From the IMG/VR virus record IMGVR_UViG_2534681878_000029: a stretch of DNA of 27,110 bases, one strand, 5' to 3'. The first letter of the stretch is position 1. Each line of letters opens with the position of its first letter. The notes below the pieces were generated by a model. That model had not been told where the DNA came from. It saw only the letters and a list, made by a program, of their open reading frames with translations, and did not search any database. Both the position numbers and the translations under genes were made by a program. Positions 4,315 to 25,535 of this stretch are shown here, one piece after another. This DNA comes from a virus. Taxonomy: Duplodnaviria > Heunggongvirae > Uroviricota > Caudoviricetes.

Positions 4315-4608
4315 ATGGTTCGTGCAAACAAACGCAACGAGGCTCTACGAATCGAGAGTGCGTTGCTTAACAAAATCGCAATGCTTGGAACTGAGAAGAC
4401 AGCGGAAGCTGTGGGAGTTGATAAGTCGCAGATCAGCAGGTGGAAGAGAGACTGGATTCCAAAGTTCTCAATGCTGCTTGCTGTTCTTGAATGGGGGGTC
4501 GTTGACGACGACATGGCTCGATTGGCGCGACAAGTTGCTGCGATTCTCACCAATAAAAAACGCCCGGCGGCAACCGAGCGTTCTGAACAAATCCAGATGG
4601 AGTTCTGA
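4315..4608 (+). CDS. cII: Lambda-type CII transcriptional activator
   Basis: 97 aa from the ATG at 4315 (MVRANKRNEALRIESALLNKIAMLGTEKTAEAVGVDKSQISRWKRDWIPKF...). The upstream extension in the ORF track is not used. A TTGC-N6-TTGC CII-binding motif of PRE is present antisense at ~4323-4338. Confidence 0.95.
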   Translation: MVRANKRNEALRIESALLNKIAMLGTEKTAEAVGVDKSQISRWKRDWIPKFSMLLAVLEWGVVDDDMARLARQVAAILTNKKRPAATERSEQIQMEF

Positions 4609-4640
4609 GGTCATTACTGGATCTATCAACAGGAGTCATT

Positions 4641-5563
4641 ATGACAAATACAGCAAAAATACTCAACTTCGGCAGAGGTAACTTTGCCGGACAGGAGCGT
4701 AATGTGGCAGATCTCGATGATGGTTACGCCAGACTATCAAATATGCTGCTTGAGGCTTATTCGGGCGCAGATCTGACCAAGCGACAGTTTAAAGTGCTGC
4801 TTGCCATTCTGCGTAAAACCTATGGGTGGAATAAACCAATGGACAGAATCACCGATTCTCAACTTAGCGAGATTACAAAGTTACCTGTCAAACGGTGCAA
4901 TGAAGCCAAGTTAGAACTCGTCAGAATGAATATTATCAAGCAGCAAGGCGGCATGTTTGGACCAAATAAAAACATCTCAGAATGGTGTATCCCTCAAAAC
5001 GAGGGAAAATCCCCTAAAACGAGGGATAAAACATCCCTCAAATTGGGGGATTGCTATCCCTCAAATTGGGGGATTGCTATCCCTCAAAACAGGGGGACAC
5101 AAAAGACACTATTACAAAAGAAAAAAGAAAAGATTATTCGTCCGAGAATTCTGGCGAATCCTCTGACCAGCCAGAAAACGATCTTTCTGTGGTTAAACCG
5201 GATGCTGCAATTCAGAGCGGCAGCAAGTGGGGAACAGCAGAAGACCTGACCGCCGCAGAGTGGATGTTTGACATGGTGAAGACCATCGCGCCATCAGCCA
5301 GAAAACCGAATTTTGCTGGGTGGGCTAACGATATCCGCCTGATGCGTGAACGTGACGGACGTAACCACCGCGATATGTGTGTGCTTTTCCGCTGGGCCTG
5401 CCAGGACAACTTCTGGTCCGGTAACGTGCTGAGTCCGGCCAAACTCCGCGACAAGTGGACCCAGCTCGAAATCAACCGTAACAAGCAACAGGCAGGCGTG
5501 ACAGCCAGCAAACCAAAACTCGACCTGACAAACACTGACTGGATTTACGGGGTGGATTTATGA
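4641..5563 (+). pseudogene. O: Lambda-type replication initiator O, frameshifted inside the ori iteron region
   Basis: N-terminal 140 aa in frame 0 (ORF 4641-5249) and C-terminal ~160 aa in frame +2 (ORF 5051-5563), both matching lambda O. The frame break coincides with a 23-bp tandem duplication of an iteron plus spacer. Confidence 0.8.
4989..5097 (+). repeat. ori-lambda iterons, five copies (one more than canonical), followed by an AT-rich tract
   Basis: ATCCCTCAAAACGAGGGA (4989-5006), ATCCCCTAAAACGAGGGA (5009-5026), ATCCCTCAAATTGGGGGA (5033-5050), TTGCT spacer, ATCCCTCAAATTGGGGGA (5056-5073), TTGCT spacer, ATCCCTCAAAACAGGGGGA (5079-5097); then the A-rich stretch at 5100-5135. Confidence 0.85.
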
Positions 5564-5635
5564 AAAACATCGCCGCACAGATGGTTAACTTTGACCGTGA
5601 GCAGATGCGTCGGATCGCCAACATCGATAACCAGG
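5560..5635 (+). pseudogene. P: Lambda-type P (helicase loader) 5' fragment, truncated by IS629 copy 2
   Basis: MKNIAAQMVNFDREQMRRIAN matches the lambda P N-terminus; the reading frame then enters the IS629 terminal repeat at 5636. Confidence 0.8.
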
Positions 5636-5677
5636 TGAACCGCCCCGGGTTTCCTGGAGAGTGTTTTATCTGTGAAC

Positions 5678-6568
5678 TCAGGCTGCCAGATCATCGTTTC
5701 CGATGGAAGCATAATAAGCTTTTTCTGCTTCTGCCGGAGGGATATGACCCAGCCTTCCCAGCAATCGTCGATTGTTATACCAGTCCACCCACGTGAGTGT
5801 GGCCAGTTCCACTTCTGCACGGTTTTTCCAGCTCTTACGGTGTATTACCTCCGCTTTGTAAAGACCATTGATGCTCTCCGCCATCGCGTTGTCATACGAG
5901 TCACCTGTACTCCCTGTTGATGCCAGCAGTTTTGCTTCTTTTAGTCGCTCCGTATAGGCCAGTGATACATACTGAGAACCTTTATCACTGTGATGGACTG
6001 TGCCGGACGGCCGACGGGCCCACAACGCCTGCTCCAGTGCATCCAGCACGAATGTCGTTTCCATAGACGATGAGACTCGCCACCCCACGATGTATCCGGC
6101 AAACACATCAATGATAAACGCCACATAGACGAAGCCCTGCCATGTGCTGACGTAAGTAAAATCAGCCACCCACAGCTGGTCAGGTCGTTCTGCCACGAAC
6201 TGACGGTTTACGCGGTCGCCTGCGGCAACGGCTTTCCGGCTGATGGTCGTACGGACCTTTTTACCCCGGAGAACACCGGCAAGTCCCATAACCGCCATGA
6301 GACGTGCCACTGTACATCTGGCCACCCTGATTCCTTCCCGTAACAACTGACGCCAGACTTTACGCACACCGTACACCTGATGATTTTCATCGTATACGCG
6401 CTGTATCTCTCTCTTCAGCCAGTCGTCGTGCTGCGCACGGGCACTGCGTTTATCCGGATGATGTCGCTGTTGCTGACAATGGTAATACGTTGACGGGGCA
6501 ATATGCAGTTCGCTGCATACCGGTCCGACCCCGTACTGCTCACGCAGCTTATCCAGCAGTGGCATCAT
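5678..6568 (-). CDS. IS3-family transposase OrfB (copy 2)
   Basis: 296 aa, ~99% identical to the 1770-2660 product (e.g. I192V, G212K, T278I differences). Confidence 0.9.
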
Positions 6569-6891
6569 TTTTTCCAGAGGCGGTCGAACTCCGCCTTCGC
6601 AAAATAAGCGGAAGCCTGGCGAAGGATATCGTTACTGCGGCGCAGTTCACGATTTTCACGTTCCAGCTCTTTCAGACGCTGACGTTCAGCGCTGGTGAGC
6701 CCACCATCACCGCCCCCGGTATCCCGCTCATGCTGGCGAACCCAGACACGCAGAGTCTCCGGCGTACAGCCAATCTTTGGGGCAATGGAACAAATTGCCG
6801 CCCACTGTGAGTCATATTCATCCTGACTTTCCAGAACCATACGAATCGCCCGCTGACGGACTTCGGGGGAAAAACGAGTATTTTTAGTCAT
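6565..6891 (-). CDS. IS3-family transposase OrfA (copy 2)
   Basis: C-terminal 108 aa of the 316-aa track ORF are identical to OrfA of copy 1; the ATG is at 6889-6891 (reverse strand). The upstream 208 aa of the track ORF are antisense read-through and not called. Confidence 0.9.
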
Positions 6892-6944
6892 CCTGTTTAC
6901 CTCTTTCTCAGGGAGTTTAGTCTCCAGGATTTCCGGGCGGTTCA

Positions 6945-7977
6945 AGGACATGACGATATCGGTCTGGGTCTTTCCTGATACTGATATTTCAGATGTATCG
7001 CGTGAGTTAATTGCGGCAATTAAACAGGGGTATCTAACAGTAAAAGCCGCCGGGGTATGGGCGGGGGGCATTGAAACACCTTCGGTGGAAACTCCATCGG
7101 AAGGCTCTAAATTTTTTGGTTTTGATATGGATAACGAATTCATCAGTGGTTTTGATGTAGGGGCATGGGGAGTATTACTCTGATGGCGAAAAATGACTTT
7201 AAAGCGTTTGCAACTGATCGAAATGCCAATGTTATGTCGCAGGAGGAATGGGAAGCGTTGCCTGCGCTTATATCCGGATTTACAGCAGGGAAAGCATCCA
7301 GTGCGCAAGTCAATAAGGTTATTCGGCAGGCCAGCTTTATTGCTGCAGCTCTGGCCCAGTTTGTAAGTGATAAAACGCAACGGGATGTGCTTGATAATGG
7401 TGATCTGCCCGGTTTTGTTGAATTGCTGGGATCGGGGTTTGCTGTTGAATACCTGAGCCGCAAGAATCCGTTTGGCGATATCAAATCGGACGGCACGGTG
7501 AAAACGGCTCTTCAAAACCTTGGTTTGGGAGAAGGTGCTCCAGCTATTGGCGTTCCGTTCTTCTGGCCGTCCGCTGCAATGCCAAATACTGTAATCGACA
7601 GCTGGTCCTGTATGGTGTTTTTGAAGTTCAACGGCGCGAAATTCTCTGCCACTGATTATCCTGTGCTGGCGAAAGTGTTTCCTTCGCTGGTATTACCTGA
7701 AGCCCGCGGTGATTTCATTCGTATCTGGGATGACGGGCGAGGTGCAGACGGTGGTCGCGAATTATTAAGCTGGCAGGCAGCTACAAACTTTTCTCAGTTT
7801 GCCGGGAATATAGGCGAAGGTGCGGGACACGCAATTAACTTTCATGATGGCATCGCCGGAAATCAGCCAGGATTTTCACGATTTAATTTCACCAGTAACT
7901 CTGTGGGTGATGGTGTGAATTTTGTTGCAGTCAGACCGCGAAATATTGCATTTAACTTTCTGGTGAGGGCTAAATAA
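6945..7977 (+). pseudogene. stf: Side tail fibre gene 3' remnant (C-terminal receptor-binding segment), 5' end removed at the IS629 junction
   Basis: ORF 7165-7977 (270 aa) is immediately followed by a tail-fibre assembly gene. The preceding 220 bp are open in another frame (6950-7183). No N-terminal tail-fibre shaft is present because the IS629 end is at 6944. Confidence 0.65.
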
Positions 7978-8570
7978 TGAAACCTGTTTTTGATGAAAAT
8001 GGGCTGGCTACAGTGCCGGGCGATATGCGTTGTTTTTATTATGATGCTGAAACATCTGAGTATACGGGCTGGTCTGATGAATATATTAATACTGGCGTAA
8101 GTATGCCCGCCTGTTCCACTGGTATTGACCCTGGCGAAAACATTCCGGGAAGAGTGGCAGTATTTACAGGTAAGGGATGGAGCCATGAAGAAGACCATCG
8201 CAATGAGACTGTTTACTCAATCGAAAATGGCGCAGCTGTTACAGTGGATTATATCGGTGCCATCAAAGACGGTTATGTCACGATTTCACCGTTAACGCCA
8301 TACGATAAATGGGATGGTGAGAAATGGGTGACAGACACTGAGGCACAACACAGTGCCGCAGTAGACGCGGCAGAAGCACAGCGCCAATCACTGATTGATG
8401 CAGCAATGGCTTCCATTAGTCTGATTCAGCTGAAGTTACAGGCCGGACGGAAACTGACTCAGGCAGAAACAACCCGACTTAACGCCGTGCTGGATTACAT
8501 TGACGCGGTGACGGCAACAGATACCAGCACCGCGCCGGATGTCATCTGGCCTGAACTGCCGGAGGCGTAG
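7977..8570 (+). CDS. tfa: Tail fibre assembly protein (Tfa-like chaperone)
   Basis: 197 aa; start overlaps the stf stop (TAATG). Its C-terminal motif ...LDYIDAVTATDTSTAPDVIWPELPEA has a counterpart in the convergent paralogue at 8542-8994 (...LDYLDALELVDTSGAPDIEWPTPPAVQAR). Confidence 0.85.
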   Translation: MKPVFDENGLATVPGDMRCFYYDAETSEYTGWSDEYINTGVSMPACSTGIDPGENIPGRVAVFTGKGWSHEEDHRNETVYSIENGAAVTVDYIGAIKDGYVTISPLTPYDKWDGEKWVTDTEAQHSAAVDAAEAQRQSLIDAAMASISLIQLKLQAGRKLTQAETTRLNAVLDYIDAVTATDTSTAPDVIWPELPEA

Positions 8571-11654: not shown

Positions 11655-12398
11655 ATGGCAACTACATGTTCAGTTATATTGATTTTGGAGTCCTTTGATG
11701 TTTATTTCGGAAAAGAGAGTGTGTTTCTGGAGAGAGGTTCATCTGTACTTGTCGACTCTAGCTCTAGAGATTTTTTCCTGACATATCCTGAAAGAGTGAT
11801 AGTGGCGGATTTTGGCGCTGAGTTTATTAGTCGCTATTTGAAAGCTAATAACTTAAGGGATATTTCTGATTGTAGGGAATATCCATCTTATTTAAAAATA
11901 AACTTTGCTGACTTCAGTTTAATTAAAGGATTAATTAGTTGGGCTAATCACTGTGCTGAATACATAGAAATTTTTGATGAGTCTATTGCTTTTACATGTC
12001 TCTCTGCATTTTCTTCTGAAAAACAATTTGGAGTATTTCTGTTTGGATGTTTGAAAAGCACAGGGGCTAAAGTTAAAACGATTATTCATACGGATTTATC
12101 TGCACCATGGCGTCTTAAGGATATATCATCAAGATTATATCTCAGCGAAAGTTTACTAAAGAGGAAATTGAAAGAAGAGGGGGTATCATTCAGTAAGATC
12201 ATACTTGATGAGAGGATGCAAATGGCTGAATATTTACTCAGCACTCGTTGTTATCCTATTAGTAAAGTAGCTAAGGTCTGTGGTTATGCCAGTGTCTCAT
12301 ACTTTACTTATGTATTTAGACGTTATTTTGGTGTTTCTCCAAGTCAATACTCTCAGAGGAGTTCAGAAAGTAAAATTCTTACTCACCAGGGAATCTGA
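11655..12398 (+). CDS. AraC/XylS-family transcriptional regulator (AppY/GadX-like)
   Basis: 247 aa, strong SD GGGGGGA before the ATG; N-terminus MATTCSVILILESFD resembles AppY (MDYVCSVVFICQSFD); C-terminal AraC-type HTH (...KVAKVCGYASVSYFTYVFRRYFGVSPSQY). Sits in an AT-rich segment. Confidence 0.8.
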   Translation: MATTCSVILILESFDVYFGKESVFLERGSSVLVDSSSRDFFLTYPERVIVADFGAEFISRYLKANNLRDISDCREYPSYLKINFADFSLIKGLISWANHCAEYIEIFDESIAFTCLSAFSSEKQFGVFLFGCLKSTGAKVKTIIHTDLSAPWRLKDISSRLYLSESLLKRKLKEEGVSFSKIILDERMQMAEYLLSTRCYPISKVAKVCGYASVSYFTYVFRRYFGVSPSQYSQRSSESKILTHQGI

Positions 12399-12439: not shown

Positions 12440-12805
12440 TTAAGTTAACGTTACCCGCTGACGTCGATATTCTCGCGGAGAGCGATAACCCAACGCACTG
12501 TGCGGATGGTTTTCATTGTAATGTTCGATCGCCACTGCAAGATTATGCAATGCCGTTCTTACATTCGGTTTCGGCATGAACGCGATGTAGTCTTCCTTCA
12601 TCGTTTTCACGAACCTTTCTGCAATTCCATTACTCTGAGGACTGCTGATTGCCGTTGTGCAGGGCTCCAGATTCAACTCTCTGGCGAACTGCCGTGTTTC
12701 ATGCGCTCTATACGCTGAACCGTTATCTGTCAGCCACTGGATGGACTGTTCCGGTACTTTATCGCCAAAGCGTTTTTCTATCGCTCCTAACATGACATCC
12801 TGCAC
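12440..12805 (-). pseudogene. IS3-family (IS2-group) transposase OrfB C-terminal fragment
   Basis: 121 aa ...[51 protein letters not shown]...[14 protein letters not shown] resembles the IS2 InsD C-terminus; no intact upstream catalytic domain or OrfA. Confidence 0.8.
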
Positions 12806-13152
12806 TGTCGCTTTATCGTAACCTCCCGTGCTTGCGGCCCAGTCTATGGCTTCACGATCGCAACAGTCCAGGGCGATTCATCTGGGCCAATCCTTGCTCA
12901 TAACAGGCATTCACTTCAGTCATGGCAGAAAGGTATGCATGCTGGAGAAGTCGTGAAAGAAAAGAAGACTGCTGCGCCGTTTGTCGTCACGTTTATCTTC
13001 ATTGGCTATGCAAGTCGTAATACAAGGTGGGACAAAACTGAGACACATAAGGCCTCGCAATGGCTTGCAAGGCTTTACATGTTTTGATGTGGTGGGACGT
13101 GTGAGCGCAGTGTTGATGGGGTAATGCTTTGAATTAGAAGCGGATTCTTATA

Positions 13153-13198
13153 ATTCGTAATGCGAAGGTCGTAGGTTCGACTCCTATTATCGGCACCA
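13153..13198 (+). tRNA. Partial tRNA-Thr (anticodon CGU, thrW-like), 3' ~46 nt only: attL core of the P4-like element
   Basis: ATTCGTAATGCGAAGGTCGTAGGTTCGACTCCTATTATCGGCACCA equals the 3' part of tRNA-Thr(CGU) from the anticodon loop; the upstream sequence is unrelated to the tRNA 5' half. Confidence 0.8.
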
Positions 13199-13360
13199 TC
13201 TCAACTTCCTCAAACGTCCGTATTAGTCCATAAAATCTCTGATTTATAACATTTTTTATTCTTTTAAGTCCATAGTAGTCCGTAACCATCCAGTAGAATC
13301 CGGTACTGAATGTGTATAGGATTGTGTATATGTTCCTGTTCGGTCTGGATTCCTATACAC

Positions 13361-14542
13361 ATGCCTTTAAACGATATGCAGATTCGCCGCGCTAAGCCTG
13401 AAGCTAAAGCCTATACATTTGGAGATGGGCTAGGGTTGTCATTACTTATAGAACCTAATGGAAGCAAGAGTTGGCGGTTCCGCTATCGCTATGCCGGCAA
13501 ACCCAAAATGATCTCGCTTGGTGTTTACCCAACGATCACCCTTGCCGATGCTCGTTCCCGTCGTGATGAAGCTCGAAAACTTGTGGCAGAAGGAAAGAAC
13601 CCTAGTGAGGTTCGAAAAGAGCAAAAGCTAGCTATGCAAACAGAGTCAGAGAACGCCTTCGAAAAGATAGCCAGAGAGTGGCATCAACTTAAATCTGCTA
13701 AATGGTCGGCGGGATATGCATCAGACATCATGGAAGCGTTTAAGAACGACATTTTTCCTTATGTCGGAACAAGGCCTGTGGGAGAGATTAAACCGCTAGA
13801 GCTGCTGAACGTTCTGCGTAAAATTGAGAAACGTGGTGCGTTGGAGAAAATGCGCAAAGTGCGGCAGCGTTGCTCCGAAGTGTTTCGCTACGCAATTGCA
13901 ACGGGTAGGGCGGAGTACAATCCTGCGGCTGATCTCTCCAGCGCTCTCGAAGTACACCAATCCAATCATTTCCCATTCCTAAAAGCTGATGAGATACCTG
14001 ATTTTCTACGTGCCTTAGAGGGTTACTCCGGGAGTAAGCTTGTCCAGATAGCCACGAAATTACTGATGATTACGGGTGTGAGAACCATCGAATTACGCGC
14101 GGCATTATGGCAAGAATTTGATCTGGATAACGCTATTTGGGAAATTCCTGCTGAAAGGATGAAAATGCGTAGGCCACATCTTGTGCCCTTATCATCTCAA
14201 GCGGTAGATTTACTCAATGAACTCAAGATCATGACAGGGAACTATCGTTATGTTTTTCCAGGGCGGAACGATCCGAATAGGCCAATGAGCGAAGCGAGTA
14301 TAAATCAAGCCATTAAGCGTATTGGGTATGGAGGAAAAGTCACTGGACATGGTTTTCGTCATACCCTTTCTACAATCCTGCATGAGCAAGGTTTTGAGAG
14401 TGCTTGGATTGAAATCCAGTTGGCTCATGTAGATAAAAATTCTATTAGGGGGACTTATAACCATGCTCAATATTTTAGTGGAAGGAAGTCTATGATGGAC
14501 TGGTACAGTAATTTGATATTTGAAAGACTAAAAAGGAGTTAA
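13361..14542 (+). CDS. int: P4-type tyrosine integrase (IntA/IntS-like, DUF4102 N-domain)
   Basis: MPLNDMQIRRAKPEAKAYTFGDGLGLSLLIEPNGSKSWRFRYRYAGKPK... with the C-terminal R...HGFRHT...Y catalytic signature; directly downstream of the tRNA-Thr fragment. Start moved to the ATG at 13361 because the track extension overlaps an inverted repeat. Confidence 0.9.
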   Translation: MPLNDMQIRRAKPEAKAYTFGDGLGLSLLIEPNGSKSWRFRYRYAGKPKMISLGVYPTITLADARSRRDEARKLVAEGKNPSEVRKEQKLAMQTESENAFEKIAREWHQLKSAKWSAGYASDIMEAFKNDIFPYVGTRPVGEIKPLELLNVLRKIEKRGALEKMRKVRQRCSEVFRYAIATGRAEYNPAADLSSALEVHQSNHFPFLKADEIPDFLRALEGYSGSKLVQIATKLLMITGVRTIELRAALWQEFDLDNAIWEIPAERMKMRRPHLVPLSSQAVDLLNELKIMTGNYRYVFPGRNDPNRPMSEASINQAIKRIGYGGKVTGHGFRHTLSTILHEQGFESAWIEIQLAHVDKNSIRGTYNHAQYFSGRKSMMDWYSNLIFERLKRS

Positions 14543-14545
14543 TTT

Positions 14546-14962
14546 GTGTCTCAACCACTTTCGGAAATATTGACATGGGATGATGAACAATGGGAGGTAT
14601 TTGTCCATGATTGGCTTATTGTCTGTAAATCAGATGATTACCCGTGGAGCGAACGTTTGGGAGGAGCTGGAGATAAAGGTAGAGACGTTGTTGGATATAA
14701 ATCGGATCCTAACGTAGAAGGTTATTCTTGGGATAATTATCAATGCAAACTGTACAAAAAAAGTTTAGGGTTCTCTGATGTTGTAGTTGAGTTTGGAAAA
14801 CTTATCTATTTTACTCTGAATGGTGATTATCCCATCCCTCAGAAGTACTTTTTTGTGGCACCCTATGATTTATCTACTACATTTTCTAATTTATTGAAAA
14901 ATAAAAACGAGCTTAAAAAAGCAGTCCTTGATTCATGGGATTCAGCAATTTCAAAAAAATAA
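14546..14962 (+). CDS. Mrr-like PD-(D/E)xK nuclease-domain protein (candidate effector, N-terminal part)
   Basis: GTG start 4 nt after the int stop with SD AAGGAG at 14533-14538. Motif GGAGDKGRDVVGY ... YQCKLYKK (residues 39-72) matches the Mrr_cat pattern g-DgG-D ... QcK. AT-rich. Confidence 0.6.
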   Translation: MSQPLSEILTWDDEQWEVFVHDWLIVCKSDDYPWSERLGGAGDKGRDVVGYKSDPNVEGYSWDNYQCKLYKKSLGFSDVVVEFGKLIYFTLNGDYPIPQKYFFVAPYDLSTTFSNLLKNKNELKKAVLDSWDSAISKK

Positions 14963-15552
14963 CTAAAAAGATTGATATTCCATTAGATGATGAAATAAAA
15001 AAATATATTGAGGATTTTGATTTTAGTATTTTTTACTCTCTACCCTTATCATTGATTTTAAATGATATTGCAAATACACACCTTTATTTTAAGTACTTTA
15101 ACGAGCTGTATGTCGTGAGAATCCCTCCAAATGAAATTCCAACATACAATTCAAAAAAAGAGTCTGTATATGTTAATGCACTGCTTCAAGCCTATTCAGA
15201 GCATGGAAATAAAACTTATAGTTCTTTCTTAGAGCTTGATGATCCATACAGACGACACTTTAATAATAGTAGAAATGATTTTTATTTTGCATCTTCGCTT
15301 GAGGTTTTTGTCCGCGAAGTATTTAAAGATGATGTATTCAAAGCATTGAAATGTTACATTTCATCTTCAATTGAACCCGTCTTTTATGAAGACCATAATT
15401 ATGCATTTATTAGGTGTAATGCAGTCTTGAAGCAGGCTGTTCTGACACCAATTGCACATTCAGTACTATCAAAAATATGTGAAGCAAATGATAAAAAAGG
15501 AATATGCCATCATTTGGTTAATGATGGTGAAGTAATTTGGACGGTGAGATAA
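14935..15552 (+). CDS. Hypothetical protein; possibly the C-terminal continuation of the preceding ORF via -1 frameshift at an A7 run
   Basis: 205 aa ORF overlapping the previous one by 28 nt in the -1 frame; the overlap contains AAAAAAA (14953-14959) followed by the 0-frame stop; no recognisable motif. Confidence 0.5.
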   Translation: MGFSNFKKITKKIDIPLDDEIKKYIEDFDFSIFYSLPLSLILNDIANTHLYFKYFNELYVVRIPPNEIPTYNSKKESVYVNALLQAYSEHGNKTYSSFLELDDPYRRHFNNSRNDFYFASSLEVFVREVFKDDVFKALKCYISSSIEPVFYEDHNYAFIRCNAVLKQAVLTPIAHSVLSKICEANDKKGICHHLVNDGEVIWTVR

Positions 15553-16010
15553 TGGTTAGAATTTATAATTCAAGTTTAGAAGTGGCATGTCGAATGGCGA
15601 AAGTGCTCGTCGCTATTTATCCTTCTTCATTAAGCCTTGAACGGCTTATTTGTTTTGATTTTATTTTAGTAAATCTTAAGGATTTTTTACCTGAAGAGAT
15701 TAGTCTTCATCCTCCAATACCCCGTAGAGATGCTCAGTTAGCCCTAAAACGAGAGATTGTTTTAGAATCATTGGCTTTGTTGCAAGGCTATGAACTAGCC
15801 TCAAAAATTTATACACATCGTGGTTTTGTATATAAAGCTTCTGAAAAAACATATGCATTTACAAATTCTCTACATAATGAATATGTTGCGCAGATGGAGC
15901 ATAATATAAATTTGGTGGTTAAGTTATATAGTGATATTCCTGATGAGCAGTTGCAATCAATTATAAAAAATAAAATTGGCAAATATGATATGGAATTTAA
16001 TTATGAATGA
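15552..16010 (+). CDS. Hypothetical small protein (middle component)
   Basis: 152 aa from the ATG at 15552, overlapping the upstream stop as TAATG (translational coupling); no recognisable motif. Confidence 0.5.
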   Translation: MVRIYNSSLEVACRMAKVLVAIYPSSLSLERLICFDFILVNLKDFLPEEISLHPPIPRRDAQLALKREIVLESLALLQGYELASKIYTHRGFVYKASEKTYAFTNSLHNEYVAQMEHNINLVVKLYSDIPDEQLQSIIKNKIGKYDMEFNYE

Positions 16011-16635
16011 CAATTTTTTTACGTTCAGAAAAATAAAGGTAACCGGATTCAATAAATTAGATGCTATAATTGAATTTGGTTCTAAATTGACTATTTTATA
16101 TGGTGGTTCTGACTCTGGAAAAACATACATATATTATTTGATTCGATATTTATTAGGGAGTGAAAAACTAAAAAATAAAGATATCGATCATGCTCAAGGT
16201 TATGATTTAGCCTATCTGGAATTTAATTTTCAAGGTAGGGTAATGACAATTGAGAGGTCTCTTCAGGATAGCGCCCATTACAGATTATATGATTCGAGCA
16301 TTGAAAATGTTAGTGAAGCTAATCTGTTGATGGTTTTTTCCAAAAGTGCTTCGTCTAAAAAGAGTTTTTCATCATACTTTTATGGTAGGTTGAATTTCAA
16401 AGAGGCTAAAGTAAGAACAAACTTAAGTAATACTCTTCATAAATTTAATCTTAATAATGTTTTTGAATTTTTTTGTATTGATGAATTAAGAGTGTTAACT
16501 GAGAAGTCGTTAATTCTTTCTGATATTCCTAGCGAGGAGACAAAAAGAAAGTCTGAATTTAAATTCCTTTTAACTCAGAGAGATGATACTAACTCCTTAG
16601 CAGAAAAACCAAATAAAAAAGCAAGATATTTTTAA
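15985..16635 (+). CDS. ABC/SMC-like ATPase, N-terminal head with Walker A
   Basis: FRKIKVTGFNKLDAIIEFGSKLTILYGGSDSGKT: the SMC/RecF/RecN-type N-terminal strand followed by P-loop GGSDSGKT (nt 16102-16125). Start uncertain (ATG 15985 or 16003). Confidence 0.6.
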   Translation: MIWNLIMNDNFFTFRKIKVTGFNKLDAIIEFGSKLTILYGGSDSGKTYIYYLIRYLLGSEKLKNKDIDHAQGYDLAYLEFNFQGRVMTIERSLQDSAHYRLYDSSIENVSEANLLMVFSKSASSKKSFSSYFYGRLNFKEAKVRTNLSNTLHKFNLNNVFEFFCIDELRVLTEKSLILSDIPSEETKRKSEFKFLLTQRDDTNSLAEKPNKKARYF

Positions 16636-16665
16636 AAAAATCAAATTGCAAATATTTATGAGGAA

Positions 16666-17256
16666 TTGAAAGCGCAATTAATTTATCCTGAATATGATCA
16701 AGTCATTGTTTCAAGAGAACTTGAGAAAGTAGAGCAAGATATTGAATCATCGAAAGATATATTGAAAGGTATTGTTGATGCACTTGATGATAAGAAGCAA
16801 TTATTAAAAGAGTTAAGTGATGAATTATATTCAATCAGTGACAGGGAAAAATACTTATCATTACTCATTGAAAGATTTAGTCTTCTTAAAGACCAATACT
16901 TTATAGATCTACAAAGAATAGATGTTGTATCACAGGCGAATTTCTATTTAAATAATTTTGCAGATATTTATTGTGAGTTCTGTAATACACCGCAAAAAAA
17001 AGAAAATGAAATATCATATGATGATTGTTTTTTGTCGTGTAATGCAGAAAAATTGAAAATCAAAAGCCAGCTGAAAGGATTAATTGAATCAATCGGATCT
17101 AATGTTCGCGAACATGAATTAATTATGTTAAGAAAAAATGATGTTAATGAAATTTATCAATCAGAAAAAAGTGATTTTAAGACGTTAGAAGATAAAAATA
17201 TAAAACAATACATTCATCTCTTGAATCACTTTATGAATATAAAGACAATCTTTTAA
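16666..17256 (+). CDS. Coiled-coil segment, same frame as the preceding ORF and separated from it only by a single TAA
   Basis: 196 aa rich in heptad-like K/E/L/I repeats; the track start is TTG with no convincing SD; in frame with 15985-16635 across the TAA at 16633-16635. Confidence 0.5.
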   Translation: MKAQLIYPEYDQVIVSRELEKVEQDIESSKDILKGIVDALDDKKQLLKELSDELYSISDREKYLSLLIERFSLLKDQYFIDLQRIDVVSQANFYLNNFADIYCEFCNTPQKKENEISYDDCFLSCNAEKLKIKSQLKGLIESIGSNVREHELIMLRKNDVNEIYQSEKSDFKTLEDKNIKQYIHLLNHFMNIKTIF

Positions 17257-17822
17257 TGGATCACACAAAACATAGCATTCTATCTTCATTACAAGATAAA
17301 GAAGATGATGTTGACGAACTTAAATACTCCGCCGAGGACTTTGACTCCTTAACAGTAGCTGATTTGTATGATATAGAAATAGCGATGCAAGACTTTTTGA
17401 ATGATATAAATTTTGAAAATTCTAAAGATAACAAAGTGCGATTTGACGAAGATACATATGACTTTAATATCAATGGGAAACGCCGAGGAATGTTTGGTAA
17501 AGGTACCCGTGCAGTAATGCATGCTATATTTACCATTTGCTTTGCGGAATTTTTATCAAGAAAAGGGAATCCATTCATTGGATTTGTTGTGCTTGATAGT
17601 CCATTAGTGACGCACTTTGATAAAGATAGAGGGGGTTCTCTATCGGATGTTAATAGCGTCAGTCTCAGTGATTCATTTTATCACGCATTAATCAAAAGGG
17701 ACTATAATTTCCAGATTGTAATTCTTGAGAATAAAGGTCCGACGTTCCAAATAAAAATTAATGATGCAAATAAAATCCATAACTTAAATAAGAATGGAAG
17801 CTCTGGTTTTTATCCTGTTTAA
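17256..17822 (+). CDS. ABC/SMC-like ATPase, C-terminal head with signature-like and Walker B motifs
   Basis: ...RRGMFGKGTRAVMHAIFTICFAEF (signature-like region) followed ~20 aa later by IGFVVLDSP (Walker B-like hhhhD); ATG overlaps the upstream stop as TAATG. Confidence 0.55.
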   Translation: MDHTKHSILSSLQDKEDDVDELKYSAEDFDSLTVADLYDIEIAMQDFLNDINFENSKDNKVRFDEDTYDFNINGKRRGMFGKGTRAVMHAIFTICFAEFLSRKGNPFIGFVVLDSPLVTHFDKDRGGSLSDVNSVSLSDSFYHALIKRDYNFQIVILENKGPTFQIKINDANKIHNLNKNGSSGFYPV

Positions 17823-18231
17823 TACATTAAAAATATAACTGCTAATTGGGGTGCTCGAAATTATATTTCGTTTCGAGCGCTCAGTTCATTTCTAAATAAT
17901 TTGCAAAATTATTTTGGGTACTTTCGCCTCTACACTTCCTTCGGGTGGTTCCACAATAATGGATCTCACCGGCGTTTGATATTTTATAATCTAACCCCTT
18001 AGCGCGCGCAGCCCCCCACGCCTGCTCGCTTCGCTTAACAGACTGGTTTTCATGCATTCCGCAAATCGTCTCAGAAGCCACCACACAAGGGCTTTCGCGT
18101 CAAAAATGGTGCATGAGAATCATGCGTTTTCATGCGCTATAGACATGCACTCATGCGCTCTCAGGCCAGCCAGGGAAAAGGCGTAAAAAATCCCAGTACT
18201 GGACCGGGATTACGTGGGCTTTTTTTGCTAA

Positions 18232-18504
18232 TCAGACAGGAATTTGCTGACGGCTTGACAGCTTTGACGCGGAGCCATAGCGATTGAGAGTTTGCTGTTG
18301 TTTTTCCGGCATTTGTGCTTTCTCTGATTCCTGTTCATTGCGCCGGGGCTTCATGATTATCGTATCCACACTTTCCAGTGCGGTAAATGTGTAGGAACAT
18401 TCAAGATTCTGGCACTGATACCATGAGCGTTTAACCGATGGTGCTTCATAGGCGGAGGTTCTGGCGTGTGCCGTCGTACCGCATTCGGGACATTTAAGTG
18501 CCAT
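18232..18504 (-). CDS. Ogr/Delta-family zinc-finger late-gene transcriptional activator
   Basis: MALKCPECGTTAHARTSAYEAPSVKRSWYQCQNLECSYTFTALESV: the CxxC...AHARTS...QCxNxxC...TF pattern of P2 Ogr / P4 Delta. Confidence 0.85.
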   Translation of the reverse strand: MALKCPECGTTAHARTSAYEAPSVKRSWYQCQNLECSYTFTALESVDTIIMKPRRNEQESEKAQMPEKQQQTLNRYGSASKLSSRQQIPV

Positions 18505-18509
18505 TAATA

Positions 18510-19061
18510 TTACTCCTGCATGCCGTTAATGTAATCCAGACGTTGCTGAAAGCGCAGTTGTTGTGCAGGGGTGTAAGAGCTCTGGCAATCACGAACCATC
18601 ATGGGGTCAGGCATCACACCGGATTCATCCAGAATCATACGATAATCCCCGGCAATTTCAGGCGGTGTTATTGCCAGCTGGCGAACCAGAGCATTGCGTA
18701 ATATACGGGACGCAACGTCAACCCCTCCGCGCCCCTTCAGGAACGGAGCCAGTGCAGATGTCAGGGCTGCTCCATTCGCCTGCATAAAATTGCTGAGAGC
18801 GTCTTCTGTGCAGGCCTCCATCAGTTGATGCTGCGAGTAAATGCATTCGCGCGCAGCACAGTTAATTTGCCATTTCAGCACATCCAGATGTTCCCGCTGT
18901 AATTCGAGCTGTCGAGCATAATCTGCTGGTTTTTCCATGGCAGTGAGGAGTGATTCTATCTGTTGTTCAACGGCTTTTCGGCTCTCACTATGTCCAGCCC
19001 ACAGAATACGGGCATTTCTAAAACTGATAAGCGCTTGGTCTGGAGTGACTCGGGCCATCAT
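18510..19061 (-). CDS. psu: Psu-like protein (P4 polarity suppression / capsid decoration family)
   Basis: 183 aa; shares recalled P4 Psu motifs (KWQ[IV]N, HG[AT]ALA[AS]ALAP, TPAQ); co-oriented with the sid-like gene as in P4. Confidence 0.7.
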   Translation of the reverse strand: MMARVTPDQALISFRNARILWAGHSESRKAVEQQIESLLTAMEKPADYARQLELQREHLDVLKWQINCAARECIYSQHQLMEACTEDALSNFMQANGAALTSALAPFLKGRGGVDVASRILRNALVRQLAITPPEIAGDYRMILDESGVMPDPMMVRDCQSSYTPAQQLRFQQRLDYINGMQE

Positions 19062-19810
19062 ACTGCTTTCTCCTTCTCAGCACGTTCCTGACGAACCTTC
19101 ATTTTATGCATAGCTGCTGGAGAGAGTTTATTACTGAAATCCAGACGGGCCGCATAATCCGGGGCAACTCCCGCCAGTTTAAACACGGGGTCCTGTTCGG
19201 GCATCGCATCGTTAGTCAGAGCCGGTCTGGTGATATGTTTATGAATAAAATCTTTCAGCAGTGTGTCCGGGTCATTAACTGAATGCACCACACCGACAAC
19301 TGCGCTGGCTTCCCTGCCCATTGTTGATTTGAGCAGGCTTAGTGTCTGGATTAGTGCTTTTCCATGCGACTGCATAAAATCTTCCCAGATTTGTTTTGCG
19401 CGAATACCCACAAGGGTGTCGTGCGCGTGGATATACTTTCCGGCTAATTCCGCAGCCTCCTGCGGCAAAAGTGCATTTTCGCTTTCCTGAGCCGCCAGCA
19501 GCTCATCAAAATCCTCAAGCGTTTCTCGTCCCAGCGCAATTTCCGTGCGCAGTTTTTTCATTTCCTTTGAGACTACGCCCTGACTTTCACGAAATAGCGT
19601 GCGCCACTCCTCATTCAGGGCGTTCGTCGTGGCTTCCATTTCAGCGCGGCGCTGGCGGATTGTCGCAATATTATCCGCTGCCGCTTTTTGCTGACGACGT
19701 GCTTCAAGCCATGCAGATTTGGTGGCATTCACTTTCTCAAGCGCCTGTTGCGTCGAAACAGGGATAGAAATTTCAACGATCGGGTTATTGTTCTGTTCTG
19801 GGATTGTCAT
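19058..19810 (-). CDS. sid: Sid-like external scaffold protein (P4 capsid size determination family)
   Basis: 250 aa, Ala/Glu/Gln-rich helical protein upstream of psu in the same operon, divergent from the alpA/primase operon; resembles what I recall of P4 Sid (e.g. EEWRTLFRESQGVVS). Confidence 0.7.
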   Translation of the reverse strand: MTIPEQNNNPIVEISIPVSTQQALEKVNATKSAWLEARRQQKAAADNIATIRQRRAEMEATTNALNEEWRTLFRESQGVVSKEMKKLRTEIALGRETLEDFDELLAAQESENALLPQEAAELAGKYIHAHDTLVGIRAKQIWEDFMQSHGKALIQTLSLLKSTMGREASAVVGVVHSVNDPDTLLKDFIHKHITRPALTNDAMPEQDPVFKLAGVAPDYAARLDFSNKLSPAAMHKMKVRQERAEKEKAV

Positions 19811-19975
19811 GTCAGCACCTAGTGGTTTGTCGTGGTGTCAATTGTGCTGTGATGCATACAAAGCTGCCATTGAACGCCATTGTGCGAGCGACAAGACAAA
19901 GACTGAACCGCCCCGGACCTCTTTTGGCTAGCCAGAAAAGGCCTCGTTTAACTAAGGCTGTTTCAGACTTACCTT

Positions 19976-20743: not shown

Positions 20744-21004
20744 ATGCGTAATATTTCTGTGTCTGCGCCAGCTCCTGCTGCGCCATTATTTCCTGTATCG
20801 AACCATCATGAGCGATTTTTACGCCTGCCTGAGGTGATGCACTTATGCGGGTTGTCCCGTTCGACCGTTTACGACCTGATCAGCCGCGATGCGTTTCCGA
20901 AGCAGATCCCGCTTGGCGGTAAAAATGTCGCCTGGGCACAGTCTGAGGTCAGCGCATGGATGGCGGACCGCATCAGCGCCCGTGGGCGGGGATGTGATGC
21001 ATGA
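20744..21004 (+). CDS. AlpA-family DNA-binding regulator (prophage excisionase/regulatory HTH)
   Basis: 86 aa; [52 protein letters not shown] is the AlpA/MerR-like HTH signature found in P4-like and CP4-57-like elements. Confidence 0.8.
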
Positions 21005-24578: not shown

Positions 24579-25535
24579 TTATTTTTGAATTGATTTAAAC
24601 ATCCCATCGAGTTGTAATTTATTTATGTCGGTTTTCTTTATGGCTTTAATTAAGTTTTCAATAACTTCCAAAGAAAAAATTACATCTTTCTTTTCAATTC
24701 TAACCCCCCCGTGGTGGCTGCAAGCATTAAGGATGTCCTTTGTAATTTCAACATCATTTTTCATTAATGGTTCATAGTCCAGAGCCTCAATAACAGAAAC
24801 TAAACTACCTAGCATTTGCTCTTGGTATTGAACGTTGTTTAAATGCATTATACGAATATTAACAAGCATGAGAATATATTCTAAATATCTCCTGGCAGTA
24901 TTTCCTTTCTCTTGTAAAGAATCACGATCATATTCCTCAATACTCATGACTTCATTATGTAAAGAGGCTATTTTGTGCTCTGCTAATGAAATATTTATCG
25001 CATCCATGAGGTTTCGTGAGAAGCCTGTAGATGTAACATGACCATTTGCGGGCCTTGTTAAAATACATGTAGTATAGCAATTTATATTTGGGGTCTGGAT
25101 TGTCTCATTTACTCTTTTAACCGTTCTATAAACGTCTACCATATAAGAACCTGAGTTTTCAAATGAACATGAAGAGCATTTTGTATTATATATTCTATTT
25201 AGAGATAACTGATTGTGATAGTATCCCTTTAAGAAAGCATATATAGTGTCATTAAACTCGACAAACACAACGGACTCAATATATATATGGAATTTATCAT
25301 TGGGGTGCCACTCTAATTCAAGTCTTCTTGTAGAGTCATCAAAGGAAAAGTTTGAAATAAAATCCCAGTTACCTAAATCTATAAAATCAACGATATTTCT
25401 ACCTGCACCATGGATATTTTTATTTATTAAAGTTGTGATTGAGTTTTTTATAATGTCCCAATCATGAATTTCATGATCGAATTTATTATTGATGGTTTCT
25501 TTTATTTGATTGGAAAAGTTTGAATAACTAGTCAC
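24579..25535 (-). CDS. Hypothetical AT-rich cargo protein in the second variable region of the P4-like element
   Basis: 318 aa, Asn/Ile/Lys-rich, much lower GC than the flanking primase gene; no recognisable catalytic motif by eye. Confidence 0.6.
   Translation of the reverse strand: MTSYSNFSNQIKETINNKFDHEIHDWDIIKNSITTLINKNIHGAGRNIVDFIDLGNWDFISNFSFDDSTRRLELEWHPNDKFHIYIESVVFVEFNDTIYAFLKGYYHNQLSLNRIYNTKCSSCSFENSGSYMVDVYRTVKRVNETIQTPNINCYTTCILTRPANGHVTSTGFSRNLMDAINISLAEHKIASLHNEVMSIEEYDRDSLQEKGNTARRYLEYILMLVNIRIMHLNNVQYQEQMLGSLVSVIEALDYEPLMKNDVEITKDILNACSHHGGVRIEKKDVIFSLEVIENLIKAIKKTDINKLQLDGMFKSIQK

Follow-up and report, generated by a model that had tools for sequence, protein, structure and literature searches.

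Six open reading frames in the int-psu hotspot of the P4-like satellite Sp2 of Escherichia coli O157:H7 are most probably the remains of a type II Lamassu operon

The viral record IMGVR_UViG_2534681878_000029, a stretch of 27,110 nucleotides (nt) whose full length we call the window, contains a cassette of six open reading frames (ORFs) between positions 14546 and 17822. All six lie on the plus strand: ORF1 (14546 to 14962), ORF2 (14935 to 15552), ORF3 (15537 to 16010), ORF4 (15976 to 16635), ORF5 (16666 to 17256), and ORF6 (17256 to 17822). We conclude, with a probability of about 0.87, that the cassette is a decayed type II ("short") Lamassu operon with the gene order lmuA-lmuC-lmuB and an Mrr-like nuclease effector, carried as cargo between int and psu of the satellite Sp2. 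Type II Lamassu and ABC-3C are two names for one system. There are six ORFs because two 1-nt deletions and a nonsense codon split an operon of three genes that had been intact. The system and its location are both known, and the operon, pseudogenised here, has already been annotated and published. The value of the analysis is that of a correction and an example, not of a discovery.

The six ORFs tile the PADLOC profiles LmuA, LmuC, and LmuB end to end. The E values of ORF1 to ORF6 are 9e-41, 3.9e-44, 2.5e-36, 8.4e-50, 1.6e-21, and 5.1e-37, a range of 1e-21 to 1e-50 that is far beyond chance. ORF1 and ORF2 cover positions 10 to 140 and 141 to 333 of the 336 in the LmuA profile (PDLC03852), and ORF4, ORF5, and ORF6 cover positions 3 to 199, 231 to 412, and 428 to 608 of the 610 in the LmuB profile (PDLC03863). 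The reach of ORF5 as far as profile position 412 is a spurious coiled-coil alignment. In Pfam, ORF2 is the CTD6 domain of ABC-3C systems (7.7e-30), ORF3 is the middle component MC2 (6e-30), and ORF4 matches AAA_23. No NCBIfam model matches any of the six products. Single-sequence and profile searches of the PDB returned noise or marginal matches to the N termini of SMC and Rad50 proteins, and the solved Lamassu structures were reached by fold searches. The three genes lie on one strand and overlap: lmuA and lmuC share a TAATG (15550 to 15554), and lmuC and lmuB overlap by 8 nt (16003 to 16010). The true starts of lmuC and lmuB are at 15552 and 16003, as in RefSeq. RefSeq lists ABC-three component system proteins in the strains annotated by PGAP, and in strain Sakai it lists lmuB as the pseudogene ECs_0293.

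A preliminary description of this DNA had proposed an uncharacterised anti-phage system of six genes with a Lamassu-type logic, a split ATPase, and middle proteins that match nothing nameable. The Lamassu logic is borne out, in that every ORF matches a PADLOC Lamassu profile. The remainder needs revision. The six ORFs resolve into three genes, the middle proteins ORF2 and ORF3 are the CTD6 and MC2 components, and the split in the ATPase is damage to a former three-gene operon and not an architecture. The system is not uncharacterised either, as it is annotated in RefSeq and published under the name "Lamassu-var."

To locate the damage, the DNA was aligned to intact operons, one from the Logan assembly L008 (78.7% nt identity) and one from Proteus mirabilis (L006; 89.3%). 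Exactly two gaps, each of 1 nt, and a single stop codon appear in the alignments. The first lesion is a 1-nt deletion in a run of adenines (A7 here; 14952 to 14958), seen as a gap against both L008 and L006, which moves lmuA from frame 2 to frame 1. The second is the nonsense codon TAA at LmuB codon 211 (16633 to 16635). Relatives have leucine at this position: O55:H7 and the Proteus orthologue use TTA, and L008 uses CTG. The third, at 17194 to 17198, is again the loss of 1 nt from an A-run, which has five adenines here (A5) and six in the Proteus orthologue (A6). It too appears as a gap against both L008 and L006, and it shifts the lmuB reading frame from 1 to 0 near codon 398. Downstream of this point, the frame-0 text KYKTIHSSLESLYEYKDNLLMDH agrees with the intact YKKIHLLLESLYEYKDNLLMDY. 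The T-run at 17251 to 17254 was also considered as the site of the third lesion, and it was ruled out by the protein and DNA alignments, which place the gap at 17194 to 17198.

The intact state of the operon is found in several relatives. Full-length LmuB homologues of 606 amino acids (aa) are 86% identical in Proteus mirabilis and 74% identical in Pantoea alhagi. Intact operons of 335, 152, and 606 aa are present in Pantoea alhagi (CP019706; L007), in the Logan assemblies L008 and L009, and in Proteus mirabilis L006, and Citrobacter braakii has an operon of 334, 157, and 609 aa that belongs to a 44%-identical clade. The Pantoea, Logan, and Proteus operons have the same three genes as the window, again with overlapping junctions; however, they have neither the frameshifts nor the stop codon. 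The Pantoea, L008, and Citrobacter operons also lie between a P4-type int and ogr/psu, with the order ogr-psu-sid in Pantoea and L008. The Proteus L006 locus shows the reverse pattern at 7800 to 8450: the Lamassu operon is intact, and the adjoining P4-type integrase is present only as short fragments. The IMG/VR record UViG_2923272612_000005 (4531 to 7801) contains another copy from the Lamassu clade of the window, 77% identical, next to a near-identical integrase. That copy has decayed independently, with LmuA in three fragments, LmuB in at least three, and breakpoints unlike those of the window.

We also scanned the architecture of the wider family, taking one genome per species and the best 80 loci with an LmuB relative. 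These loci come from many phyla, and most of the relatives are only about 25% identical, so the scan shows that the architecture is conserved and not how frequent close relatives are. The genes lmuA, lmuC, and lmuB are colinear at 79 of the 80 loci, and at all 80 a single ORF of 605 aa or more encodes LmuB.

The lmuA pseudogene occupies 14546 to 15552. Its 335-aa ancestral product would consist of an Mrr-like PD-(D/E)xK nuclease domain followed by the CTD6 oligomerisation and sequestration domain, as judged from PADLOC LmuA and Pfam. LmuA is now encoded by two ORFs and not as one protein: a nuclease domain of 138 aa (14546 to 14962) and a C-terminal domain of 205 aa (14935 to 15552). The 3' end of int contains a Shine-Dalgarno sequence for lmuA, AAGGAG (14532 to 14537), which is 8 nt upstream of the GTG start codon. 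The catalytic motifs of the nuclease span 14669 to 14749, with GDKGRD at 14669 to 14686 and QCK at 14741 to 14749. Residues D43, G45, D47, Q66, C67, and K68 do not vary among 38 LmuA relatives, and K68 carries the number of the catalytic lysine that was mutated in Salmonella LmuA (K68A). The Pfam family Mrr_cat matches ORF1 of the window with an E value of 0.2, which is under the cutoff, and it matches 6 of the 38 family members, at best with 1.6e-6. These features point to the Mrr-like branch of the PD-(D/E)xK superfamily (D...QxK) as the probable origin of the effector, with a modest margin over Cap4.

The only intact gene is lmuC (15552 to 16010), which encodes a 152-aa ABC-3C middle component 2 (Pfam MC2, 6e-30, above the cutoff; PADLOC LmuC, 2.5e-36; phrog_36943, 4.7e-105). 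The lmuB pseudogene (16003 to 17822; PADLOC LmuB) once encoded a 606-aa SMC/Rad50-like ABC ATPase, and it now consists of the fragments 16003 to 16635, 16666 to 17256, and 17256 to 17822. Homology and fold identify these fragments as LmuB, but they are not a single polypeptide, with the frame broken at codon 211 and near codon 398. The Walker A motif GGSDSGKT is at 16102 to 16125, and its residues G34, S36, G39, and K40 are invariant in 26 relatives. The Walker B-like motif FVVLDSP is at 17583 to 17603. It has a serine and not a glutamate after the aspartate, and D532, S533, and P534 are invariant in the family. Between the two motifs, at 16972 to 16983, there is a zinc-hook-like CxxC (CEFC) at the apex of the coiled coil, with C324 and C327 invariant.

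The fold of LmuB was taken from an AlphaFold 2 (AF2) model of the intact Proteus LmuB, which is 86% identical to the window sequence and was predicted with a pLDDT (predicted local distance difference test) score of 86. In this model, residues 1 to 190 and 470 to 606 form the ABC head, and helices 233 to 318 and 339 to 439 form the coiled coil. The apex loop (residues 319 to 338) lies between the two coiled-coil helices and carries the conserved CxxC. The best PDB matches of the model are the Lamassu LmuB chains 9uxh, 9hqu, 9hqx, and 9nyg (E values of 4e-15 to 4e-11), followed by Rad50 and SMC proteins. The preliminary description had read the first ORF as an Mrr-like PD-(D/E)xK nuclease and the last three ORFs as one SMC/Rad50-type ABC ATPase. 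Both readings hold up, the former through the invariant D43, D47, Q66, and K68 and the 6 of 38 relatives that reach Mrr_cat, and the latter through the single LmuB profile and the match of the modelled Proteus homologue to solved LmuB. The motifs it quoted (GDKGRD, QCK, GGSDSGKT, and FVVLDSP) are all present in the sequence.

The solved homologues suggest how the intact ancestor may have worked. Two LmuB protomers and one LmuC would hold one LmuA through its C-terminal domain, which would keep the nuclease sequestered. LmuB and LmuC would then detect phage DNA ends or replication intermediates, and ATP-driven engagement of the LmuB heads would release LmuA. The freed LmuA would tetramerise, become active as a nuclease, and degrade cellular DNA, resulting in abortive infection. 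The window copy is not expected to form a working complex, because lmuA and lmuB are both cut and only lmuC is intact. The first lesion separates the LmuA nuclease from the C-terminal domain responsible for its sequestration and oligomerisation, and the head halves of LmuB are parted from the coiled coil. In the Lamassu systems that have been tested, among them a Lamassu-Mrr from E. coli SE15, mutation of the ATPase, mutation of the effector, or deletion of lmuC each abolishes defence. As judged from its sequence, the window copy most likely has no present function.

The cassette is present in 309 of 5,426 complete E. coli genomes, and all copies are at least 99% identical. The carriers listed are O157:H7, O55:H7, and unserotyped strains such as the pig isolate NJS001. 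A blastn search with the window operon and with the Citrobacter-type operon found no diverged copy in E. coli outside the O157/O55 clade. We then searched with queries in which the junctions had been repaired. An in-frame version was found in 0 of the 309 records for the first lesion and likewise in 0 of 309 for the third. The codon of the second lesion is still TTA in 10 of the 309 records, namely, O55:H7 strains, the O157:H7 strains LSU61 and 493/89, and FDAARGOS_946. Since TTA is kept in these 10 records and the frameshifts are present in all, the frameshifts are older than the nonsense codon. Both frameshifts predate the ancestor that O55:H7 and O157:H7 share. The nonsense codon came later, within O157:H7, and the operon has drifted neutrally since.

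Further damage has accumulated within the clade. The length of an A-run in lmuB (17165 to 17170) varies: the window shares A6 with the Proteus orthologue, but four O55:H7 genomes have A5 and O157:H7 LSU61 has A7, and each of these changes is one more frameshift. Strain CB9615 has a T insertion at 16467 as well as the nonsense mutation Q214*. Deletions of 1 nt occur in single strains at 14589, 14997, and 16994, and some strains have IS1203 or another insertion in lmuB, or partial deletions. Among 20 substitutions in the clade, 18 are non-synonymous and 2 are synonymous, and two create new stop codons. The 18 of 20 fits a neutral expectation of 0.80 (p=0.40) and rejects an omega of 0.1 (p=2e-8). 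Against the intact orthologues, the ratio of non-synonymous to synonymous divergence (dN/dS) is 0.06 to 0.12. Therefore, the operon was under strong selection until shortly before the O55/O157 ancestor.

The cassette has been described before. In the Domainator paper (Nucleic Acids Research [NAR] 2024, PMC11754643), it was named "Lamassu-var" and cloned from CP038295 (4,116,517 to 4,120,474) of the O55:H7 strain TB182A. It was presented as a new, abundant, and active variant and as the commonest cargo of the P4-like hotspot (259 of 910). The paper nowhere mentions frameshifts or pseudogenes. "Lamassu-var" and the window share the locus, the ORFs, the int-psu position, and the two ancestral frameshifts, with 9 differences in 3,551 nt. 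Unlike the window, the O55:H7 copy has TTA in place of the TAA stop codon and an extra 1-nt deletion at 17165, and it thus has three frameshifts. The clone comprises the TB182A copy of the cassette plus ogr, and it runs exactly from the GTG start codon of lmuA (14546) to the start codon of ogr (18504). The published claim of activity is weakened because the clone lacks the lmuA Shine-Dalgarno sequence at 14532 to 14537 and any upstream promoter. We infer that the published abundance of "Lamassu-var" largely reflects heavy sequencing of the clonal O157:H7/O55:H7 clade.

Several observations weigh against a reading of the cassette as a dead operon. The Domainator authors (PMC11754643) reported smaller plaques of T2, T4, T6, and RB69 with the O55:H7 clone at the highest dilutions, which suggests some residual activity; the available text of their article describes no mutant controls for this effect. 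The frameshift site in lmuA (14949 to 14961), TC-A_AAA_AAA-TAA, looks like a -1 slippery heptamer with a stop codon directly after it, and slippage by -1 at this point would restore ...SKKITKK..., the ancestral protein sequence. In lmuB, the junction at 17254 to 17258 is a TAATG stop-start overlap, so all fragments might be translated. The cassette might thus be a working Lamassu variant, with its pieces translated separately or by slippage and assembled noncovalently into an active sensor-effector complex. Heads of Rad50 have been reconstituted from separate N- and C-terminal halves, which is a point in favour of such assembly. We nevertheless consider a working variant unlikely. The reported phenotype is confined to smaller plaques at the highest dilutions, and it came from a clone with the shortcomings and the three frameshifts described above. 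In a 2026 survey (PMC13586616), 28 phages were tested against a P4 "Lamassu variant," which may or may not be the locus in the window, and no protection was seen. The substitutions in the clade have a neutral pattern, new indels continue to accumulate, and the split is never seen in the intact relatives among the best 80 loci. The slippery site in lmuA is not a conserved programmed site, because intact orthologues have AAAGAAAA or AATAAAA there. It is similarly improbable that a -1 slip supplies a little full-length LmuA while LmuB pieces, made by restart at TAATG, assemble into a naturally split, low-dose SMC-like sensor with a weak effect against T-even phages.

The location of both frameshifts in A-runs, and the variation of the nearby run at 17165 to 17170 among A5, A6, and A7 in different lineages, could also suggest a contingency locus in which phase variation toggles a toxic defence system. 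This is very unlikely. Neither frameshift site has the in-frame length in any of the 309 genomes, the runs are short (A7 and A5), and the variants at 17165 to 17170 only add frameshifts. Moreover, the O157 lineage has fixed a nonsense codon that slippage cannot reverse. Homopolymer indels are common in long-read assemblies, and the private deletions at 14589, 14997, and 16994 could be errors of this kind. However, we give next to no credence to the idea that the genes are intact and their frameshifts are sequencing or assembly errors: the lesions recur in about 300 independently sequenced genomes, including Sakai and EDL933, and one lesion is a substitution and not an indel. The remaining alternative, a novel and uncharacterised six-gene defence system, could appeal to the lack of an NCBIfam model for any product and to the empty single-sequence PDB searches. 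It has almost no chance of being correct, as the LmuA, LmuC, and LmuB profiles account for every ORF, intact three-gene orthologues exist, and the folds match solved Lamassu subunits.

Among the closest known systems is the Lamassu-Mrr of E. coli O150:H5 SE15 (Millman et al. 2022), likewise a type II system with an Mrr-family nuclease LmuA. Validated in E. coli, it works through abortive infection and depends on all three of its components. If SE15 was among the genomes searched by blastn, its system is not detectably similar to the window at the DNA level. The best structural matches for LmuB and LmuA are the solved type II complexes of Vibrio cholerae (DdmABC/LmuACB; 9nxx, 9ny1, 9nyg, and 9uxh) and Salmonella enterica (LmuACB; 9hqu and 9hqx). 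The solved complexes established the sequestration state of one LmuA, two LmuB, and one LmuC, the sensing of DNA ends, and the LmuA tetramer that forms on activation. Rad50/SbcC and SMC ATPases share with LmuB the head-coiled-coil-head fold, the Walker A motif, and a signature-like GKGxRA before Walker B. However, LmuB is much shorter, has LDS and not DE in Walker B, and is partnered by LmuC and LmuA and not by Mre11/SbcD or a kleisin.

These results carry a lesson for defence-system censuses. One pseudogenised operon has been counted many times, as O157:H7 is heavily sequenced, and censuses that ignore frameshifts and clonality will overcount. In O157:H7, the locus most probably provides no working Lamassu, a point of relevance to the phage susceptibility of this lineage and to phage biocontrol. 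The cassette is also a dated example of a defence system that decays in place within an immobilised satellite. The 2026 survey reported that defence pseudogenes are rare in P4 hotspots and that defence genes are swapped before they become pseudogenes; the cassette is a counterexample to that view.

The window is from E. coli O157:H7, and the region from 14400 to 17950 is 100% identical to Sakai, EDL933, and many further strains. The element is labelled "prophage Sp2, P4-like phage" in the Sakai annotation. As the preliminary description had noted, the ORFs are co-directional and low in GC and occupy the P4 int-psu hotspot, which the ORF coordinates, the base composition, and the Pfam matches on both flanks confirm. 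The GC content is 0.28 to 0.34 over 14501 to 17500, compared with 0.48 (13501 to 14000) and 0.51 (18001 to 18500) in the flanks. The left border of the hotspot is the P4-type tyrosine integrase intS (ECs_0289; plus strand, 13361 to 14542), identified by the Pfam families Arm-DNA-bind_3, Phage_int_M, and Phage_integrase and by the Sakai annotation. The right border (minus strand, 18232 to 19810) consists of ogr/delta (18232 to 18504; Pfam Ogr_Delta, 1e-16), psu (18510 to 19061; Psu, 4.8e-42), and sid (19058 to 19810; Psu-like, 7.1e-10). Beyond sid lie ash (Phage_ASH) and the alpha primase (Zn_Ribbon_Prim/Toprim_3/D5_N/Pox_D5). The Pfam matches thus recover the P4-like satellite core in P4 order, comprising int, psu, sid, delta/ogr, ash, and the alpha primase-helicase, with Psu matched twice. 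According to the Domainator authors (PMC11754643), these Psu proteins share only about 31% identity with P4 Psu. The ORF at 20744 to 21004 is of the AlpA family; it is annotated as a "transcriptional regulator" in Sakai, and its counterpart in orthologous satellites matches Phage_AlpA. A terminator-like hairpin with a 13-bp stem (plus strand, 17849 to 17882) begins 27 nt past the lmuB stop codon and is the longest terminator-like site in 13000 to 18600. A tRNA scan of the window found zero tRNA genes. In published experiments with Sakai, Sp2 showed no excision or circularisation, replication, or packaging, and its P2-like helper, Sp13, is defective.

Some further features lie outside the cassette. 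At the far end of Sp2, directly beyond the P4 alpha primase, ECs_0304 (minus strand, 24579 to 25535) encodes a 318-aa protein and has a GC content of about 0.31. It matches nothing in Pfam or PADLOC. About 35 homologues, 44 to 80% identical and mostly about 318 aa long, are all annotated as "hypothetical," and those with organism names are all from Enterobacterales or Aeromonas. The satellite may carry ECs_0304 as a second cargo gene. The AT-rich gene ECs_0287 (plus strand, 11655 to 12398; GC content of 0.33), located between the Sp1 remnant and Sp2, encodes an AraC-family regulator. It adjoins the remnant of an IS3-family transposase (minus strand, 12440 to 12805) and is frameshifted in NJS001. 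Upstream of sid, a 15-nt stretch (19901 to 19915) is present in O157:H7 and not in O55:H7 TB182A.

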